From an uncultured bacterium (GTDB lineage Bacteria; Patescibacteriota; Minisyncoccia; Moranbacterales; UBA2206): a stretch of DNA of 64,000 bases. The DNA lies in the NCBI GenBank assembly GCA_903831805.1, contig CAIKZD010000009.1, positions 72,786-136,785 of the forward strand, read 5' to 3'. This document shows, piece by piece, positions 1 through 45,794 of this stretch. A program made the position numbers and the translations under genes. Each line of letters opens with the position of its first letter. Position 1 is the first letter of the stretch. The notes beneath the pieces were generated by a model. It ran no database searches. It had not been told where the DNA came from and saw nothing but the letters and a program-made list of their open reading frames with translations.

Positions 1-946
<946 letters not shown>

Positions 947-4886: not shown

Positions 4887-5849
4887 CTATTTCGCGAAAG
4901 AATATTTGATAGAATCATTTTTCAAATCAATGACACCGTAGGCGGCGAAATAGCCGGTGCGGGTTAGGGCTGCTTGGCCGGCATAGGCAATGCCGTCATA
5001 AGTTTTTTGCCACGGCACATGCCAATGCCCGGACAAAACCAATTTGACGTTGCCGCTAGCGTGCAAAATGTTTTCCAATTCCGCGTATCTCGGCAACAGA
5101 TCGCCGACATAGGGAAAATTGCTGCCGGTGAAATCATGAATATTGTTCGATGCCAGCCCGCCGTCAAAAAGGGGAATGTGCATGGTGATGATGACCGACT
5201 TATCTGTCTTTAGGGCGTCCTTCAACCAATCCAATTGCGGCTGATCGATGGCGCCTTGATAATCGCCATTGCTTTCCACGTCGTCCAAGACAATGATGCG
5301 CGTTTGGCCATAATCGGTGTAATAGTAGGCACTGCCGCTCACGCCGAGAATGCCCATAACTTTGGTATTGTCATGGTTGCCGCGCACCCAGATGACACGC
5401 ATATGTTTTTCCTCAGTGATGTGTTCCAAAACGCGCGCATAATTATCATCGCCGGAATTAGTGTTGTCACCGGTGGCAATGACAGTGTCGATGCCTTGAC
5501 GCTGGAGTGTGTCAAAAACGGCGGGCAAGTAGTCGCTGAATCGCCGCGGAAACATCAAGCCGCTGTTGATGTCGCGCCGCTTAAATCTATCCGCGTGGAT
5601 ATCGGAAACCCAGCCAATCTTTTCATATGCTTTCGCAAATCCGACTTGCCGAAAAAATGGCACATCTCTTTTCAAGAATTGATTGGCTTTTTGCGCCAGG
5701 AGAGAATCTTGCGGCTGGCCGATTTCCAGCGAGTACTGACCGTCAATGGCGTATAGCCTGAGGAAAAACAAGGCGAAAAAAATTGCAACGAGGCCTAAAA
5801 AAAAGCCACCTCCAATTTTCCATTTTGAATATTTTTTCATATTAAGCAT
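4887..5849 (-). CDS. membrane-anchored calcineurin-like metallophosphoesterase
   Basis: GDxHG...GDNTNSGDD...GNHD...GHWH motifs; N-terminal TM helix. Confidence 0.75.
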   Translation of the reverse strand: MLNMKKYSKWKIGGGFFLGLVAIFFALFFLRLYAIDGQYSLEIGQPQDSLLAQKANQFLKRDVPFFRQVGFAKAYEKIGWVSDIHADRFKRRDINSGLMFPRRFSDYLPAVFDTLQRQGIDTVIATGDNTNSGDDNYARVLEHITEEKHMRVIWVRGNHDNTKVMGILGVSGSAYYYTDYGQTRIIVLDDVESNGDYQGAIDQPQLDWLKDALKTDKSVIITMHIPLFDGGLASNNIHDFTGSNFPYVGDLLPRYAELENILHASGNVKLVLSGHWHVPWQKTYDGIAYAGQAALTRTGYFAAYGVIDLKNDSIKYSFAK

Positions 5850-5914
5850 AGCTTTAGTTTAATGGGGAAATGAGTTTTTGTAAAACAAAAGAACGTTGAC
5901 AGTCAGGCCGCCGC

Positions 5915-5943
5915 TTGACATAATTTAAAATTTCTGCTAATAT
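5915..5943 (+). promoter_or_regulatory. sigma70-type promoter (TTGACA-17nt-TAATAT)
   Basis: TTGACA at 5915-5920, 17-nt spacer, TAATAT at 5938-5943, about 35 nt upstream of the ATG at 5979. Confidence 0.5.
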
Positions 5944-5978
5944 ACTTTGTTAATAGCTAACTAATTGAGAAAAAACAT

Positions 5979-6755
5979 ATGACTACGGAAAGAATGCTTA
6001 AATTAGCCAAAAATCATCTAAAAACCGCTTTGCTTTTCGGCCTCTTGGCCGGCGCGCTGTCTTTTTTGGTTTTGGTGACGACGCAAAAAAGTTTTCGCGG
6101 AAGTGCGGACATTCTGATGTCACAGAACCAAGCGGGAGCGACGGACTATTACGCTTTGTCCCAAGGCGCTAACTATTTGACCAACATTCTTTCTCAGTCG
6201 ATCTACAGTGAAAAATTCTTGGAAGAAGTGGACGCCACCGGGAAAATTTCCACTGGTTTTCTGGGCAATGATAACGCAACGCGTCTCAAGGAGTGGCAAC
6301 GAGTGGTGCATGTGAAAAATAATTCCAGTGTTGGCATCATGAACATCCAAGTTTTCGGAGACACACAATTTCAAACCGATAAACTTTCAGAGGCCGTTAT
6401 CGATGTGCTGGTGAATCACAATTCTTTCTTCTTGGGTCAAGAGCAAAATGTGAACGTGCGAATTTTGTCCGGACCGATTGTGGAAAAGAATCCGTCCATC
6501 GCGCAGATCGTGGCCGCCGCCGTGGGTGGGTTTGCAGTTGGGATGCTTTTCTTCCTCTTGTTTGTCATCTATCGCGCCGAATTTTTCCCGCAAGAAGAAT
6601 TGGCGGACGAGGAACTTTCCATCAAGATGGATCAGGTGGAAAAACAGATTTTCCCACTGGAAAATTTCCCGCCAGAACCATCGATTTCCGACGAGGACTA
6701 TTTAGCGGCGGACAGTGATTATTGGAAGGATAAATTGGAAAACAAGAAAAATTAA
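5979..6755 (+). CDS. Wzz-like polysaccharide chain-length determinant protein
   Basis: 258 aa; TM helix near N-terminus and a second near the C-terminus flanking a hydrophilic domain; Wzz-type N-terminal sequence pattern. Confidence 0.5.
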   Translation: MTTERMLKLAKNHLKTALLFGLLAGALSFLVLVTTQKSFRGSADILMSQNQAGATDYYALSQGANYLTNILSQSIYSEKFLEEVDATGKISTGFLGNDNATRLKEWQRVVHVKNNSSVGIMNIQVFGDTQFQTDKLSEAVIDVLVNHNSFFLGQEQNVNVRILSGPIVEKNPSIAQIVAAAVGGFAVGMLFFLLFVIYRAEFFPQEELADEELSIKMDQVEKQIFPLENFPPEPSISDEDYLAADSDYWKDKLENKKN

Positions 6756-6910
6756 AATTACTTTATGTCTAATCCCATTTCTCGTGAAAGGGGATTAGCA
6801 TAAGGTTGTTGAGGATAGTAATTTGACAACTGAATATATAAAATTATGTCCGCGCAATGAATTGTGCGGATTACGAATTGCAAAAAACAAAAAACAATTG
6901 GAGAAGAAAA

Positions 6911-7873
6911 ATGAACTCGACAAGAAGAGCGTATCTTAAGGTGATAGGTAGTGCAGCTCTGCTTTTGCTATCCGGTTGCGGCGCGAAAGTATTAGAGATG
7001 CAAAAGGTCAACTTCGGGGCGAAAATGCCAGATAGTGGCGAAACTTTAGCGAGCAAATCAATGTTGGTTCTGCCTGACAGATCGTTAGGCTTGGAACCGA
7101 CGGAAGATGTCCGTCGAGGAAATACCTCGAATTTTTTGGAGTTTTTCCCGATGCGACTGTATGCCGGGGAATGGTTTCCAGGCAGGTTGCGTTGGGACAC
7201 TTGGACTATCGCTGCGGACGGTACAGAGCACTTTGGTCAGATAATTTTTTCCGGAATGCATCTCTCGGGACGCTATTCTGGAATTAATGTCATCGATGGC
7301 CAAGTGCGGTCTGGGACAACAGCCGTTCTGTCTACTGCGGTGGATTTTATCTATAGCCCAGTAGGCAAGGAGTTGGCGGTGGAACGCGAGAAGTTTATAA
7401 GCGATCCCCAGTATCGCCGGGAGAAAATCACGGCAGTGAATACGGCTAAGAATGGGGAAGTGATCAACCTTAGCTCGCTGACAAGAAATGATGATTTCAA
7501 ATGGTATGTCAAAGTGTGGAATCAGTTGAAAACCCCGGATGGATATTTGCTCGCGCCGTACGGATTGGAAGAAGTGGCAAAAATTCGCGGCATTAATCCG
7601 CAATATAGCTATTTCGAAAAGTTGGTCGGGACGGGCAAGTTTGCCGTTACTCCGACTGCCGATCCAGCGTCCTTGGCGATTGTCAACTCCATCGGAATCA
7701 TGATGGATATGATAAACGCGGCGGATGCGCCGTCGACTGGGTGGGATTTCGGTTCGCAAATCAGTCGCAGACAGGCAGGCTTTGTGACAGAATATGCCAT
7801 GCGCCTAGCTGAGAAAGAAATTCAAAAAAGAGATGATGCTAACGCTAGATTGTTAGCAAAGAAACCAAAATAA
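6911..7873 (+). CDS. lipoprotein, hypothetical
   Basis: Start chosen at MNSTRRAYLKVIGSAALLLLSGC (lipobox LSGC); the ORF-track start at 6857 lies upstream. Confidence 0.5.
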   Translation: MNSTRRAYLKVIGSAALLLLSGCGAKVLEMQKVNFGAKMPDSGETLASKSMLVLPDRSLGLEPTEDVRRGNTSNFLEFFPMRLYAGEWFPGRLRWDTWTIAADGTEHFGQIIFSGMHLSGRYSGINVIDGQVRSGTTAVLSTAVDFIYSPVGKELAVEREKFISDPQYRREKITAVNTAKNGEVINLSSLTRNDDFKWYVKVWNQLKTPDGYLLAPYGLEEVAKIRGINPQYSYFEKLVGTGKFAVTPTADPASLAIVNSIGIMMDMINAADAPSTGWDFGSQISRRQAGFVTEYAMRLAEKEIQKRDDANARLLAKKPK

Positions 7874-16721: not shown

Positions 16722-16809
16722 CCTTTGTCATTCCCGCGTAGGCGGGGAATCTAGTGTAAAAACTTAGAAATTTGCGACTGGATTCCCGTATACACGGGAA
16801 TGACAAAGG
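16722..16809. repeat. MITE-like palindromic element, family C (TIR CCTTTGTCATTCCCG / CGGGAATGACAAAGG)
   Basis: 88 bp with perfect 15-bp terminal inverted repeats and two internal hairpins; related copies at 21987, 40396 and 43549. Confidence 0.8.
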
Positions 16810-23147: not shown

Positions 23148-23305
23148 GTCGTCATCCTGAGCGGAGTGATTCGCCGTTAAGGCGAAGAACGCAGTCGAAG
23201 GATCTGCGTTCCATTATTGCTAGTAATATTATATTCACAAAACCACTGGTAATACAAGGCAGATTCTTCGACTTCGCCCGAGTACGGACTTCGCTCAGAA
23301 TGACA
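23148..23305. mobile_element. MITE-like element, family A (about 157 bp, TGTCATCCTGAGCG...CGCTCAGAATGACA)
   Basis: Long imperfect palindrome with terminal inverted repeats; copies at 41119, 45638 and 55059. Confidence 0.85.
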
Positions 23306-23313
23306 GACTATTT

Positions 23314-32358: not shown

Positions 32359-32612
32359 GTGTCCATTGTATCATTTTGAGCTATTTAAACAATTGACATT
32401 ATTCTGGTGATTTTTTTATGTTGAACCTTTACATGCAGTCTCAATATGCTACCATGCCAACAAGGAGGGGCGCAGAAGAAGCAGGAGATTGCCTATTTAT
32501 TAGGACTTGCCGGATGATGAAGCTATGCGGCAACAACCCGAAAACCATCTGGGTGGCTATAAATACAAGCGAAATCACTTGCGCACGCTCATCCTTTCTC
32601 GTTGTTCCGCTG

Positions 32613-32684
32613 AGAGATATAGTTTAGTTTGGTCAAAACACGGCCTGTCACGCCTTGCCGCAGGTTCGAACCCTGCTACCTCTC
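32613..32684 (+). tRNA. degenerate tRNA-like gene (anticodon loop CTGTCAC, GTC/Asp-like)
   Basis: Perfect T-arm GCAGG-TTCGAAC-CCTGC; anticodon loop identical to bacterial tRNA-Asp; acceptor AGAGATA/TACCTCT has one mismatch; anticodon stem has one mismatch; variable loop only 3 nt; no encoded CCA. Followed by its own terminator. Confidence 0.35.
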
Positions 32685-32693
32685 AGTTTCCCC

Positions 32694-35533: not shown

Positions 35534-36076
35534 ATGAAACGAAAAATTTTTATCAGTTTGAACATTCCTGAACAAGACCGCAAAAGGTTGGCACGCTTGG
35601 CCGAAAAGTGGCATGATTTACCGGTCAAATGGACGCGCGCAGCCAATTTGCACATCACTTTGGCTTTTTTAGGTTTCGTGCTGGAAACTGATTTGCCGGA
35701 AATTTGCCAAAAAGTGGCTGAGGCCGCCCAAAAAAACACTATTTTTGATCTGGAATTTGATGAAATCAGCCTTTTCCCAAGTGCGGATGAACCGCGGGCT
35801 GTGGCGCTCATCGGCCGACCCAGCGAAGAATTGAAAAATTTAGTCAATTCATTGGAAGATACTTTAGACATTGCTTATGCCCCTAGAAAATCTTTTCGCG
35901 CACATGTGACACTCGGACGGATCCGCAAAAACAAATGGGCGGAATTGGAAACCGAACCGCGCATCTTGGAAAAATTTGCCATCAGCTTGCCGGTGGACGC
36001 CGTGGACATCATGGCCAGTGACTTTGACGGCGGGGAAGGGGAGTATGCCGTGCTGGAAAGCTGCCCACTGGTATAA
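35534..36076 (+). CDS. thpR: RNA 2',3'-cyclic phosphodiesterase (2H family, LigT/ThpR)
   Basis: Two H-x-T/S-x motifs: HITLAFLG and HVTLGRI. Confidence 0.8.
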   Translation: MKRKIFISLNIPEQDRKRLARLAEKWHDLPVKWTRAANLHITLAFLGFVLETDLPEICQKVAEAAQKNTIFDLEFDEISLFPSADEPRAVALIGRPSEELKNLVNSLEDTLDIAYAPRKSFRAHVTLGRIRKNKWAELETEPRILEKFAISLPVDAVDIMASDFDGGEGEYAVLESCPLV

Positions 36077-41118: not shown

Positions 41119-41275
41119 TGTCATCCTGAGCGGAGTGAGTCGCCAACGAGGCGACGAACGCAGTCGAAGGATCTGCTATGCATTACCACAAGCATTGTGA
41201 TTTATAGTAATACTAGTGATTACACAAAGCAGATTCTTCGACTTCGTCCGAGTACGGACTTCGCTCAGAATGACA
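41119..41275. mobile_element. family A MITE-like element between iscS and iscU
   Basis: TGTCATCCTGAGCGGAGTGAGTCGC...GCAGATTCTTCGACTTCG...CGCTCAGAATGACA. Confidence 0.85.
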
Positions 41276-44780: not shown

Positions 44781-45242
44781 ATGGAAAAAATACACCAAAA
44801 ATTTAAAGCCCTCCTTAGACACTTTTTTCTTATCGATGACTCACCGCACAAAGTGGCGGGCGGCGTGGCGGTGGGAATTTTTATGGGCATCGTACCGGGT
44901 GAAGGAATCCTCAGTACGCTCTTTGTTGCCTACATTCTCCGGCTGAATCGATTAGCAGCTTTGACTGCGATTGTGGCCGTCAATATGTGGACGACCATCC
45001 TAACTTTGCCTCTGGCGGCCATTGTGGGCGGTTTCCTTTTCAGAGTCAGCCCTCAATCGCTCACCAACAGCTTTCACACCACCTATACCCTCGGTTGGAA
45101 TTATTTTTTCAGCAAAATCATCCTCTTCGAGCTGGTCCTGCCCCTCATGGTCGGCTTCATCGTCGTCGCCCTGATCATTTCCTTGTCATTCTATCTGATT
45201 ATCTATTTTTCACTGAAGCATAAGAAAATTAAATTTCAATAA
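44781..45242 (+). CDS. DUF2062-family membrane protein
   Basis: KVAGGVAVGIFMGIVP motif and three TM helices. Confidence 0.6.
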   Translation: MEKIHQKFKALLRHFFLIDDSPHKVAGGVAVGIFMGIVPGEGILSTLFVAYILRLNRLAALTAIVAVNMWTTILTLPLAAIVGGFLFRVSPQSLTNSFHTTYTLGWNYFFSKIILFELVLPLMVGFIVVALIISLSFYLIIYFSLKHKKIKFQ

Positions 45243-45247
45243 AAAAA

Positions 45248-45285
45248 GCATACTCGAACAATTGTGTTGGTATGCTTTAAAAATT
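45248..45285 (+). terminator. hairpin terminator
   Basis: GCATAC-loop-GTATGC followed by TTTAAAAATT. Confidence 0.4.
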
Positions 45286-45290
45286 CAAAC

Positions 45291-45475
45291 TGGAGACCCT
45301 GGAAGGATTTGAACCTCCGACACATTTCATCGAATCTATCTGTTATTTTCTTTGGATTTATCGCGCGATTCAATCCAAACAGAATTACAGATACTTCAAT
45401 AAAACTCGCCTACGCGGTACTTTGCTTGGCGTCCGGATTATCATTCCGGTGCTCTACCGATTGAGCTACAGGGTC
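45291..45475 (-). tRNA. tRNA-Ile (anticodon GAT) gene interrupted by a 109-nt insertion between anticodon arm and T-arm
   Basis: 5' part GACCCTG-TA-GCTCAATCGGTAGAGC-A-CCGGA-ATGATAA-TCCGG (45475..45433); 3' part GTGTC-GGAGG-TTCAAAT-CCTTC-CAGGGTC-T-CCA (45323..45291). Acceptor halves are perfectly complementary; the insert spans 45324..45432. Confidence 0.7.
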
Positions 45476-45496
45476 ATATTCACAGTTAGAAATATT

Positions 45497-45570
45497 TGGC
45501 TGGAGGACCAGGATTCGAACCTGGGATAATGGGGTCAGAGCCCATCGCCTTACCGCTTGGCCACCCTCCA
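45497..45570 (-). tRNA. tRNA-Gln (anticodon CTG)
   Basis: TGGAGGG-TG-GCCAAGCGGTAAGGC-G-ATGGG-CTCTGAC-CCCAT-TATC-CCAGG-TTCGAAT-CCTGG-TCCTCCA-G-CCA; close to E. coli tRNA-Gln. Confidence 0.9.
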
Positions 45571-45591
45571 GCACAAAAGAAAGAACTTACG

Positions 45592-45620
45592 CAATAAAAA
45601 AATCCTAGCAAACGCTAGGA
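45592..45620. terminator. bidirectional hairpin terminator
   Basis: AATCCTAGC-aaac-GCTAGGATT flanked by A7 and T5. Confidence 0.6.
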
Positions 45621-45637
45621 TTTTTGTCAACTATTTC

Positions 45638-45794
45638 TGTCATCCTGAGCGGAGTGAGTCGCTGACGAGGCGACGAACGCAGTCGAAGGATCTGCCAGAG
45701 GTTACCGCAAGACTTGCGATTTATAGGAAAACTAATGGTTACACAAAGTAGATTCTTCGACTGCGCCCGAGTACGGGCTTCGCTCAGAATGACA
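45638..45794. mobile_element. family A MITE-like element
   Basis: TGTCATCCTGAGCGGAGTGAGTCGC...CGCTCAGAATGACA, 157 bp. Confidence 0.85.

Follow-up and report, generated by a model that had tools for sequence, protein, structure and literature searches.

An uncultured bacterium of the Patescibacteria (CPR), Parcubacteria/Moranbacteria-like by the names given to its DUF2062 homologues, carries a tRNA-Ile(GAU) gene with a 109-nt interruption where the anticodon stem meets the variable loop. The gene occupies positions 45475..45291, on the minus strand, of the 64-kb stretch of DNA analysed here (the window). We tentatively propose, at a probability of about 0.4, that the insert is an IVS-like palindromic insertion at the one permissive site of an intact tRNA gene, probably transcribed and probably accessory, and that its hairpin would be removed by a double-strand-specific RNase. 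A dead gene and a retained giant variable arm are serious rivals to this explanation. The anatomy is unusual and is a single case.

Anatomy of the gene and its cassette

The preliminary description of this DNA reported a tRNA-Ile(GAT) gene split by 109 nt at the variable-loop position, and Rfam places the insertion there as well (Table 1). It also claimed perfectly complementary acceptor halves (GACCCTG and CAGGGTC), canonical D, anticodon and T arms and an encoded CCA. These details are all borne out by the Rfam alignment and the sequence; the strand was absent from it. The gene matches RF00005 at 45475..45294 (minus strand, model positions 1-71) with 53.1 bits and E = 1.4e-08, a full-length match against a gathering score of 29. 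The acceptor stem GACCCUG/CAGGGUC has 7/7 Watson-Crick pairs. The D arm reads GCUC-AAUCGGUA-GAGC, the anticodon arm CCGGA-AUGAUAA-UCCGG with the anticodon GAU, and the T arm GGAGG-UUCAAAU-CCUUC, followed by U73 and a CCA at 45293..45291. All 21 stem pairs of the cloverleaf are formed (21/21) and the conserved nucleotides U8, A14, G18, G19, A21, U33, A37, G53, U54, U55, C56, A58 and C61 are present. With the insert removed, the remaining 76 or 77 nt are called tRNA-Ile(gat) by ARAGORN; at its default settings the program misses the gene at 45475..45291. Because default tRNA finders miss such genes, CPR genomes can seem short of a tRNA.

Table 1. Features of the tRNA cassette and of the insert, in window positions
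Feature	Position	Strand	Basis
Promoter-like site: TTGACA, 17 nt, TAGGAT, upstream TG	45602..45630	-	Consensus scan, 10/12 matches; ~30 nt before tRNA-Gln
tRNA-Gln(CUG), ordinary, CCA encoded	45497..45570	-	ARAGORN; Rfam, 61.7 bits
tRNA-Ile nt 1-43: acceptor 5' strand, D arm, whole anticodon arm	45433..45475	-	Rfam alignment; sequence; ARAGORN on insert-free sequence
Insert, 109 nt, between tRNA positions 43 and 44	45324..45432	-	Rfam places an insertion of ~110 nt between anticodon stem and variable loop
Small hairpin CGCC...GGCG in insert	45407..45431	-	Fold z = -1.5, not better than shuffled sequence
Long imperfect hairpin in insert, 82 nt, ~33 pairs, single-base mismatches	45324..45405	-	-28.3 kcal/mol, z = -6.9
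tRNA-Ile nt 44-76: variable loop GUGUC, T arm, acceptor 3' strand, U73, encoded CCA	45291..45323	-	Rfam alignment; ARAGORN
Hairpin and U run, AAAGCAUAC...GUAUGCUUUUUUU on the minus strand	45241..45278		Sequence; inverted repeats I1 and I3; conserved in L005 and L105

The identity elements of E. coli tRNA-Ile are GAU, A37, A38, A73, C4-G69, U12-A23 and C29-G41; Nureki et al. reportedly recognised C4-G69 and U12-A23 as identity pairs in 1994. Read from the sequence, the gene has GAU, A37, A38, C4-G69 and U12-A23, and it departs from the E. coli set in the discriminator U73 and in the pair 29-41, which is G-C. U73 is atypical for tRNA-Ile: the metagenomic tRNA-Ile(GAU) genes that were retrieved have A73 in nearly all cases and U73 in two. 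A32, as found in this gene, is also atypical for tRNA-Ile. The locus does not look like that of a pseudogene, with stems and conserved nucleotides intact and flanking signals present. A very recent inactivation of the gene is still conceivable.

The interrupted gene is real and is no assembly artefact. It is found in identical form in four independent assemblies (ENA ERZ27313059, JGI 3300022555, Logan SRR3657441 and Logan SRR5754711). The corresponding loci (L001-L004) match the window at 100% identity along stretches of up to 12 kb and represent one strain, and because of this identity the four assemblies are uninformative on selection. Tandem tRNA genes with similar acceptor stems can mimic the signature of an interrupted gene. 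This occurs in many phage tRNA arrays and in a Rheinheimera locus (L013), a false positive for an interrupted tRNA-Ile that proved to be tandem tRNA-Phe. However, both the recurrence of the sequence in four assemblies and the content of the 109 nt, which include no tRNA-like T arm or D arm in the Rfam alignment and instead form one long hairpin, make the chance of an assembly chimera, or of two adjacent tRNA genes read as one, negligible. The same absence of any T-arm or D-arm remnant led us to reject the insert as decayed halves of tandem tRNAs.

The tRNA-Ile gene lies 21 nt downstream of an ordinary tRNA-Gln gene, with which it is presumably co-transcribed. The TTGACA of the promoter-like site and the leader downstream of it are conserved in the related loci L005 and L105. 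The site is a candidate promoter only, because the same bases form a terminator-like hairpin after the upstream AA_kinase gene. On the other side of the cassette, the hairpin with its U run is likely to be a two-way terminator common to the tRNA genes and the convergent DUF2062 gene, judging from its sequence; it was not listed by the consensus terminator scan. The tRNA-Ile gene is probably transcribed.

Homologous loci were sought by synteny, with DUF2062 neighbours (58-81% identity) as the guide. No cassette separates the DUF2062 and AA_kinase genes in L006, L007, L103/L104, L106/L107, L213 and the P0006 contig, and in L108 a 67-aa ORF stands in its place. Where a cassette exists its content differs. 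In L005 it consists of a Gln-like tRNA whose anticodon loop is 6 nt long, a tRNA-like sequence that is degenerate, and a tRNA-Thr(GGU), and L105 has a 130-nt tRNA-like RNA without a recognisable anticodon arm. The locus is conserved but the tRNA genes in it are not, and this approach therefore yielded neither an orthologous insert nor a relative with the orthologous tRNA-Ile. Homology of the insert with the cargo of L105 or L005 was rejected, the local alignments being no better than those of shuffles (p about 0.05-0.3). The motif CGCGCG is common to the hairpin tips of the window and L105 RNAs, in two sequences only.

A patchy cassette with contents that change from one close relative to another makes it more likely that the tRNA-Ile is accessory and not the sole tRNA-Ile of the cell, and its absence from most close relatives, together with cargo that elsewhere is different and partly aberrant, suggests that the cargo is dispensable. 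The gene is thus probably accessory. The same pattern is an argument for regarding the gene as non-functional or non-decoding: a palindromic DNA element would recently have landed in a redundant accessory tRNA-Ile gene, with a working copy elsewhere. The atypical U73 and A32 point the same way. However, the rest of the gene is undamaged, with its stems, conserved nucleotides, CCA, promoter-like site and terminator in place. This weakens the case for a dead gene only in part, because the intact body would be accounted for just as well if the insertion were very recent. All things considered we hold a dead gene to be somewhat unlikely, and further points on both sides come from the insert itself.

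Position, fold and relatives of the insert

The boundary of the insert can slide by 1 nt. The insert-free junction would read ...AAUCCGG/GUGUCGG... or, with the boundary slid, ...AAUCCGGA/UGUCGG.... From its 5' end the insert consists of an A, the 25-nt small hairpin, a second A and the 82-nt long hairpin, and folded by itself it reaches -36.6 kcal/mol (z = -5.3). The small hairpin may not be a genuine structural element, because its z score does not set it apart from shuffles. The preliminary description had credited the insert with hairpins of its own; the one that it quoted is the tip of the longer 82-nt hairpin (45405..45324), and this tip carries the palindrome AUCGCGCGAU. The long hairpin is more stable as the tRNA-sense strand than as the antisense strand (-20.6 kcal/mol), and its basal 11-pair helix has 3 G.U pairs. 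This energy difference is real but not significant, because it depends on only 3 G.U pairs versus 1 C.A mismatch, and strand asymmetry was rejected as a proof of structure at the RNA level.

In the minimum-energy fold of the entire 188 nt all cloverleaf stems form and the insert folds apart (-67.4 kcal/mol, z = -6.6). The cloverleaf pairs form with a mean probability of 0.971 when the native insert is present and of 0.960 when the tRNA has no insert. Shuffled inserts lower this figure to 0.846 +/- 0.116; only 1.3% of the shuffles reach the native value, and only 56% of them keep the full cloverleaf. The insert is thus predicted to fold independently and to leave the cloverleaf undisturbed. That it disturbs cloverleaf folding less than ~99% of shuffled inserts speaks against an element that landed in the gene by accident and killed it, and so does its location, as a random insertion would fall in the variable region in only ~5-7% of cases (our own estimate, from about 5/76 positions).

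A separate palindromic MITE-like family of ~157 nt has 3-4 copies in the window, one of them ~70 nt upstream of the cassette, which counts in favour of a dead gene. The same holds for an insert that is a singleton in all collections scanned. However, no target-site duplication was seen flanking the insert, and no further copy of it exists in the 64-kb window. The preliminary description had proposed a search for homologs of the insert. This was carried through for the window, with the result just given, and for genome, metagenome and viral collections, which yielded none.

Among the genome contigs, a pattern of a short-D-loop tRNA-Ile(GAT), a gap of 76-136 nt and a T loop gave 28 matches, all of them a tRNA-Ile with another tRNA (most often tRNA-Ala) or other tandem tRNAs. 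A pattern of the D arm and the GAU anticodon loop matched 66 times among the metagenome contigs, and none of these had an insert in the variable region. One gene among the 66 is interrupted elsewhere, by 191 nt in the anticodon loop (L086). Two scans of viral contigs returned tRNA arrays only, or nothing. The pattern scans used a fixed D-arm pattern, and the genome and metagenome collections do not include the source organism of the window; the negative result is limited by this pattern and by the coverage of the collections. Because no homologous insert was found in other organisms, support from covariation or conservation is absent.

A search for strict cloverleaves in 1.64 Mb of fetched DNA gave 877 of them, with no other credible tRNA having a variable region above about 35 nt. 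One candidate with a variable region of 66 nt (L168) is doubtful, being without Rfam support. Natural class II arms are about 10-24 nt long and in bacteria occur only in tRNAs for Leu, Ser, Tyr and Sec. Variable arms of 25-32 nt occur naturally in phage tRNA(UAU) genes of the fetched loci.

These figures bear on a reading in which the insert is retained as an extreme form of class II arm. The 185-nt RNA, with two hairpins as an additional domain, would then serve as a tRNA or as a hairpin RNA on a tRNA scaffold. The phage arms lend it some plausibility. The insert lies in the variable region, adjoining the exit of the class II arm (between 44/45 and 48), and is predicted to fold on its own. 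In E. coli, tRNAs engineered to carry a small hairpin aptamer in the variable arm are active (PMC7590224). However, 109 nt is roughly five times the length of the longest natural class II arms (about 20 nt), the 877 cloverleaves hold nothing credible of comparable size, and a far smaller variable-loop insert, Baby Spinach, left only marginal tRNA activity (as cited in PMC7590224). A retained arm of this size is therefore improbable. If it were retained, no other natural variable arm would come near it in size, and it would be nature's equivalent of the tRNA-scaffold design of synthetic biology.

Intron classes and the fate of the insert

To our knowledge, bacterial tRNA genes are interrupted only by self-splicing introns, which are almost always in the anticodon loop. 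Group I introns have a catalytic core of ~200 nt or more and in tRNAs are sited in the anticodon loop. The insert was earlier judged too short for this class, and we agree. No known RNA family in Rfam, introns and ribozymes included, matches its 109 nt at E <= 10. Intron_gpI has no match at the gathering threshold in the 64-kb window and none at E <= 10 in 45200-45600. Group I introns of tRNAs follow a U and end with a G (PMC13011429). The insert is preceded by G, ends with U and is at 43/44, in conflict with these boundary rules. Group II introns are recognised by domain models, a 5' GUGYG and domains V/VI, and none matches at E <= 10 in overlap with the insert. The lone weak match to an intron family, Plastid-GIID1-clpP, is at 45200-45282 on the plus strand, outside the tRNA (14.6 bits versus a gathering score of 140). 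A match of the locus to YrlA (19.5 bits versus a gathering score of 69) was rejected, as it merely joins the tRNA-like modules of the two adjoining tRNAs.

The bulge-helix-bulge motif consists of two 3-nt bulges flanking a 4-pair helix at the splice sites. By manual inspection none could be drawn at the 43/44 or the 37/38 junctions. At the junctions UCCG-G-ACGC can pair with GUGU-CGGA, although the one bulge that results has 1 nt and a second bulge is absent. A gene of the LigT/2',5'-RNA-ligase family lies ~9 kb from the tRNA-Ile gene; the family is widespread.

ARAGORN in intron mode offers a different anatomy for 45291..45475, tRNA-Ile(gat) i(38,103). The insert would then be a 103-nt intron at the canonical 37/38 site, spliced by an unknown activity, with AUUCGA near the insert end as the 3' strand of the anticodon stem and a junction reading ...AAUGAUA/AUUCGAUG.... 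However, this fold brings a C27xA43 mismatch and a G.U pair into the anticodon stem, leaves an 11-nt variable loop and passes over the perfect 5-pair stem that adjoins the anticodon loop. It also has no group I, group II or bulge-helix-bulge features at its disposal. Because such a solution arises for 53/300 shuffled inserts as well, the fold is at chance level, and the placement away from 37/38 given in the preliminary description stands, as it does in the best fold. A 37/38 intron is accordingly very improbable.

The preliminary description offered a novel intron, a processed insert or a selfish element that has disrupted the gene, and the features found are compatible with each of the three. 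An IVS-like insertion is the explanation that we prefer for these features. As far as we know, natural tRNAs accommodate an extra arm nowhere but where the anticodon stem meets the variable loop. The tRNA-Ile gene would have acquired a 109-nt palindromic insertion at this junction, and in the transcript the insert would fold alone, mainly as the hairpin of ~33 pairs, and project from an intact cloverleaf. RNase P and 3' processing would free the precursor from the Gln-Ile transcript, and the long hairpin could then be cut by a double-strand-specific endonuclease, RNase III for example. The outcome would be a tRNA in two pieces that the acceptor stem and tertiary contacts keep together, or a tRNA that is subsequently trimmed. 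If the tRNA is used, removal is favoured over retention, because large variable-loop aptamers leave marginal activity and small hairpins are tolerated (PMC7590224). Because it belongs to a small cassette of accessory tRNA genes, the gene may be dispensable to the cell.

We are more doubtful about a stronger form of this proposal, that the gene encodes the first bacterial tRNA to be matured from a variable-region IVS, neither group I nor group II, giving a two-piece or re-joined tRNA-Ile. We know of no bacterial precedent for a two-piece tRNA working in translation. If the stronger form is true, the gene would be a bacterial counterpart of fragmented rRNAs and of the split or non-canonically interrupted tRNAs of archaea. 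Processing into a working tRNA would extend IVS-type processing from rRNA to tRNA, would imply that CPR bacteria can live with, or mend, insertions in the smallest of their essential RNAs, and would bring a bacterial case into the discussion of split and interrupted tRNA genes. Even if the gene is dead, it points to small, fast-changing tRNA cassettes with aberrant tRNA-like cargo in these genomes.

Comparison with known systems

Several known systems share some of the features of the insert. The non-canonical tRNA introns of archaea are likewise short and not self-splicing and are located away from 37/38, the variable region included. They differ in having a bulge-helix-bulge and in being removed by protein enzymes, whereas no such motif can be drawn for the insert, which at 109 nt is long for the class. 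Bacteria are not known to us to have a tRNA splicing endonuclease. [quoted passage not shown] However, they match RF00028, lie in the anticodon loop (e.g. 35/36), come after U and end with G, and the insert, at 43/44, comes after G, ends with U and has no Rfam intron match.

Class II arms and engineered aptamer arms resemble the insert as extra hairpins that leave from the variable region with the L-shaped core intact. Class II variable loops are defined as those of 10 nt or more (PMC7609411). The insert differs from natural class II arms in its 109 nt, in its two hairpins and in belonging to a tRNA with a GAU anticodon, and does not qualify as one of them. MITEs have in common with it that the 82-nt core is an imperfect palindrome or inverted repeat; unlike them, the insert has no second copy in 64 kb, bears no similarity to the 157-nt family and shows no target-site duplication.

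The closest likeness is to the IVS of bacterial 23S rRNA and to the insertions in CPR rRNA genes, which are also ~100 nt long, lack an ORF and an intron signature, and occupy a surface-exposed loop. An IVS of rRNA is a single long imperfect stem-loop, and so is the bulk of the insert: it lies in the variable region, its 82-nt hairpin has ~33 pairs (at least about 20 being the mark of an IVS) with z = -6.9, and the cloverleaf is unaffected. The host is different, being a tRNA instead of an rRNA, and cleavage by RNase III is inferred here. Unlike the hosts of rRNA IVS, a tRNA in two pieces would be held by only a 7-pair acceptor stem and tertiary contacts, and no example of an IVS in a tRNA is reported in the literature searched. 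In CPR rRNA genes, ORF-less insertions of <200 bp that are neither group I nor group II are common, and some are at RNase III IVS sites (PMC11270868). The IVS of rRNA are sporadic among close relatives and common in bacteria with small genomes such as CPR (PMC11270868), and in the present case the cassette itself is patchy.

Anatomy of the interrupted tRNA-Ile(GAU) gene

A canonical tRNA body, an insert that folds independently and conserved flanking signals characterise the locus. The Rfam tRNA model matches it over the full model length (53.1 bits, E = 1.4e-08), and the alignment contains a single large insertion that follows the 3' strand of the anticodon stem and precedes the variable loop. 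A preliminary description had reported a tRNA-Ile(GAT) gene with 109 nt inserted at 45324-45432, in the variable-loop position, and had proposed such a covariance-model search; it is accurate by both the alignment and our reading of the sequence, and the strand, which it left unstated, is minus. The 5' portion reads GACCCUG-UA-GCUC-AAUCGGUA-GAGC-A-CCGGA-AUGAUAA-UCCGG. After the 109 nt, whose edge can be shifted by one base, the 3' portion reads GUGUC-GGAGG-UUCAAAU-CCUUC-CAGGGUC-U-CCA, with the CCA encoded in the gene. All 21 stem pairs are formed (20 Watson-Crick and one G.U), and the universal nucleotides U8, A14, G18, G19, A21, U33, A37, G53, U54, U55, C56, A58 and C61 are present. The default run of ARAGORN does not call the gene; deletion of the 109 nt yields a clean 76-nt tRNA-Ile(gat).

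The gene also has GAU, A37, A38, C4-G69 and U12-A23, which are among the E. coli Ile identity elements. Two positions of the tRNA body are unusual. Nucleotide 32 is A, and the discriminator is U73, which was found in two of the metagenomic tRNA-Ile(GAU) genes retrieved; nearly all have A73. Four independent assemblies, from ENA, JGI and two Logan runs, reproduce the interrupted sequence with 100% identity, so that an artefact is exceedingly improbable. Their contigs match the window without a difference for up to 12 kb, and the four assemblies therefore represent one strain.

Coordinates of the features in the window and in other contigs
Feature	Contig	Position	Strand
16S rRNA gene, 3' part	window	1-944	
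16S rRNA insertion	window	about 555-590	
~157-nt repeat, partial	window	16724-16806	
~157-nt repeat	window	23148-23306	
tRNA-Asp(GUC)	window	32612-32685	+
LigT / 2',5'-RNA-ligase family gene	window (= L001:754-1296, identical contig)	about 35534-36076	+
~157-nt repeat	window	41119-41275	
Interrupted tRNA-Ile(GAU)	window	45475..45291	-
Rfam tRNA match	window	45475..45294	-
Insert	window	45432..45324	-
~157-nt repeat	window	45638-45794	
Three-gene cassette of a relative	L005	1333-1571	-
130-nt tRNA-like RNA of a relative	L105	3517-3646	-
67-aa ORF of a relative	L108	3029-3232	-
Phage-like tRNA run	L060 (same contig as L126)	5590-7166	
Phage tRNA (UAU)	L141	6378-6472	+
Phage tRNA (UAU)	L193	184-278 (reverse-complement coordinates)	
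Phage tRNA (UAU)	L211	606-708	+
Metagenomic tRNA, 191-nt insertion	L086	668-960	+

Fold and affinities of the insert

The insert consists of an A, a 25-nt hairpin (CGCC...GGCG), a second A and an 82-nt hairpin, which bears out the earlier statement that it has hairpins of its own. The 25-nt hairpin is not more stable than shuffled sequence (z = -1.5). The 82-nt hairpin is very stable (-28.3 kcal/mol, z = -6.9), with about 33 pairs separated by single-base mismatches and the palindrome AUCGCGCGAU at its tip. The opposite strand folds more weakly (-20.6 kcal/mol) because the basal 11-pair helix has three G.U pairs. This asymmetry (only three G.U pairs versus one C.A mismatch) hints at, but does not prove, a role of the structure at the RNA level.

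When the whole 188 nt are folded (-67.4 kcal/mol, z = -6.6), all cloverleaf stems form and the insert folds separately. Cloverleaf pair probabilities were also compared with those of 300 shuffled inserts placed in the tRNA-Ile. The mean was 0.971 with the native insert, 0.960 without an insert and 0.846 +/- 0.116 with shuffled inserts, of which only 1.3% matched the native value and only 56% kept the full cloverleaf. The separate fold and the shuffle control point to a modular, non-interfering insert, as would be expected of a tolerated extra domain. Such a domain might be a variable arm that is never removed, and small hairpins are indeed tolerated in the tRNA variable loop (PMC7590224). Yet a much smaller Baby Spinach insert at that position left only marginal tRNA activity (PMC7590224), so, if the tRNA is in use, the insert is less likely to stay in it, and we regard a permanent arm as improbable.

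No Rfam intron, ribozyme or other family was detected on the insert, even at E <= 10. A weak YrlA match does no more than link tRNA-like modules belonging to the neighbouring pair of tRNAs. With about half the length of the smallest group I introns, the insert is too short for that class, as the preliminary description had also argued; it lies outside the anticodon loop, is preceded by G and ends in U. The newly described tRNA introns of Patescibacteria are of group I and lie at 35/36 (PMC13011429). By manual inspection, no bulge-helix-bulge motif can be drawn at the junctions. Two tandem tRNAs read as one, the usual false positive of our pattern scans, are rejected since the 109 nt hold no remnant of a T-arm or D-arm. 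Run in intron mode, ARAGORN suggests an intron of 103 nt at the canonical position (37/38), at the cost of a mismatch in the anticodon stem and a variable loop of 11 nt. Of 300 shuffled inserts, 53 gave an equivalent solution. This fold is therefore treated as chance, and an intron at 37/38, a site that had been discounted from the start, is very unlikely.

A search for homologs of the insert, also proposed initially, found no second copy in the 64-kb window. In 185,579 representative genomes, a metagenome collection and IMG/VR, pattern scans requiring a particular D-arm sequence did not detect a further tRNA-Ile interrupted at this position. These negatives are suggestive, not exhaustive, because the D-arm sequence was fixed and neither the genome nor the metagenome collection includes the source organism.

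Other odd tRNA genes were also noted. A phage-like contig (L060, IMG/VR UViG_3300028597_000124) has a run of tRNA genes with inserts of 11-77 nt that ARAGORN detects only when introns are allowed; two of these tRNAs were confirmed by Rfam, with extra sequence in the anticodon loop (41 and 17 nt, against 6 in the model). Three phage tRNA genes with anticodon UAU have variable arms of 25-32 nt whose hairpin loops each read CAGAUUA, which looks like a GAU pseudo-anticodon. A metagenomic tRNA gene (L086) carries 191 nt inside the anticodon loop, probably a group I intron and a candidate only.

The tRNA cassette and its neighbourhood

The interrupted gene shares a cassette with a tRNA-Gln(CUG) gene 21 nt away. 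A predicted promoter-like site from a consensus scan (TTGACA, 17 nt, TAGGAT) lies at one end and a hairpin followed by a U run at the other. The cassette is situated between a DUF2062 gene and an AA_kinase (UMP-kinase-like) gene. The same locus was compared in nine related species with 58-81% DUF2062 identity, and the promoter, leader and terminator flanks are recognisably kept in only two. In L005 (81% identity) the flanks can be aligned with the window but the cargo cannot. It comprises a Gln-like tRNA with an anticodon loop of only 6 nt (CCUAAA), a degenerate tRNA-like sequence called by neither ARAGORN nor Rfam, and an ordinary tRNA-Thr(GGU). In L105 (65% identity) the same conserved leader and terminator surround a single 130-nt RNA without an Rfam or ARAGORN match. 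Its acceptor stem is perfect, with 7 pairs (GGUCCGA/UCGGACC), and G73, CCA and a T arm (GAGGG-UUCAAAU-CCUUC) are present; the normal D and anticodon arms are replaced by a 5-pair hairpin with the loop AAUGUGA and a branched hairpin of 73 nt that carries GCGCGCGA at its tip. Similarity of the insert to the cargo of either relative is not significant. The other seven species have no tRNA at the locus. One of them (L108) has a 67-aa ORF with a good ribosome-binding site in this slot, which thus takes varied cargo. The cassette is therefore patchy with quick turnover of cargo, and its tRNAs are more likely accessory genes than the sole copy of an essential tRNA.

The window also contains a family of ~157-nt repeats with 78-88% mutual identity, in which a variable centre is enclosed by conserved terminal inverted repeats (GTCATCCTGAGCGGAG...GCAGTCGAAGGATCTGC and complement). 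They fold into a long hairpin (-69 kcal/mol, z = -7.0) and look like miniature inverted-repeat elements. Two Logan contigs terminate within the copy ~70 nt upstream of the cassette. The family has no sequence relation to the insert.

The main rival explanation is a redundant tRNA-Ile copy, recently struck by a palindromic element and now dead or non-decoding. The patchy cassette, the aberrant tRNA-like cargo of relatives, the U73 discriminator, the singleton insert and the separate repeat family (three to four window copies, one beside the cassette) would fit such a gene. It is nonetheless somewhat less probable than the processed insertion proposed below, given that the tRNA body is undamaged, that the insert lies precisely in the variable region and that its fold leaves the cloverleaf undisturbed.

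Elsewhere in the window, the 16S rRNA gene shows 33 nt in place of 3 in the Rfam model (near model position 1158), immediately preceded by a short deletion. Within the window it is followed by neither a 23S rRNA gene nor a spacer tRNA (tRNA-Ile or tRNA-Ala), which suggests that the rRNA genes are unlinked, as they are in many Patescibacteria (CPR) genomes. These features fit the placement by DUF2062 homologues, which carry names of Parcubacteria/Moranbacteria-like Patescibacteria. The tRNA-Asp(GUC) gene scores only 45.4 bits, with mismatches in the acceptor and anticodon stems, and is without an intron; tRNA-Asp genes of some Patescibacteria carry one (PMC13011429). The LigT-family gene (PF02834, PF13563) lies ~9 kb from the interrupted tRNA; the family is widespread and no link is claimed.

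Proposed processing and relation to known systems

Our preferred reading, to which we give a probability of roughly 40%, is a palindromic insertion resembling the intervening sequences (IVS) of 23S rRNA genes, situated at the only site whose structure permits it, in a tRNA gene that is presumably transcribed, and processed. The cassette transcript would be produced and its long duplex cut by an RNase III-type enzyme. Cleavage would leave a two-piece or trimmed tRNA. A small residual probability is reserved for explanations other than those considered here.

The locus is an interrupted structural-RNA gene of unusual anatomy and putative function, a single case from an uncultured organism. No report of a comparable insertion in a bacterial tRNA variable region was found in the searchable literature. 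The closest known systems are rRNA intervening sequences, archaeal non-canonical tRNA introns and class II variable arms; the insert fails the defining tests of the latter two. The proposed cutting would have a parallel in CPR rRNA genes, where short ORF-less insertions occur, some at known RNase III IVS sites (PMC11270868).
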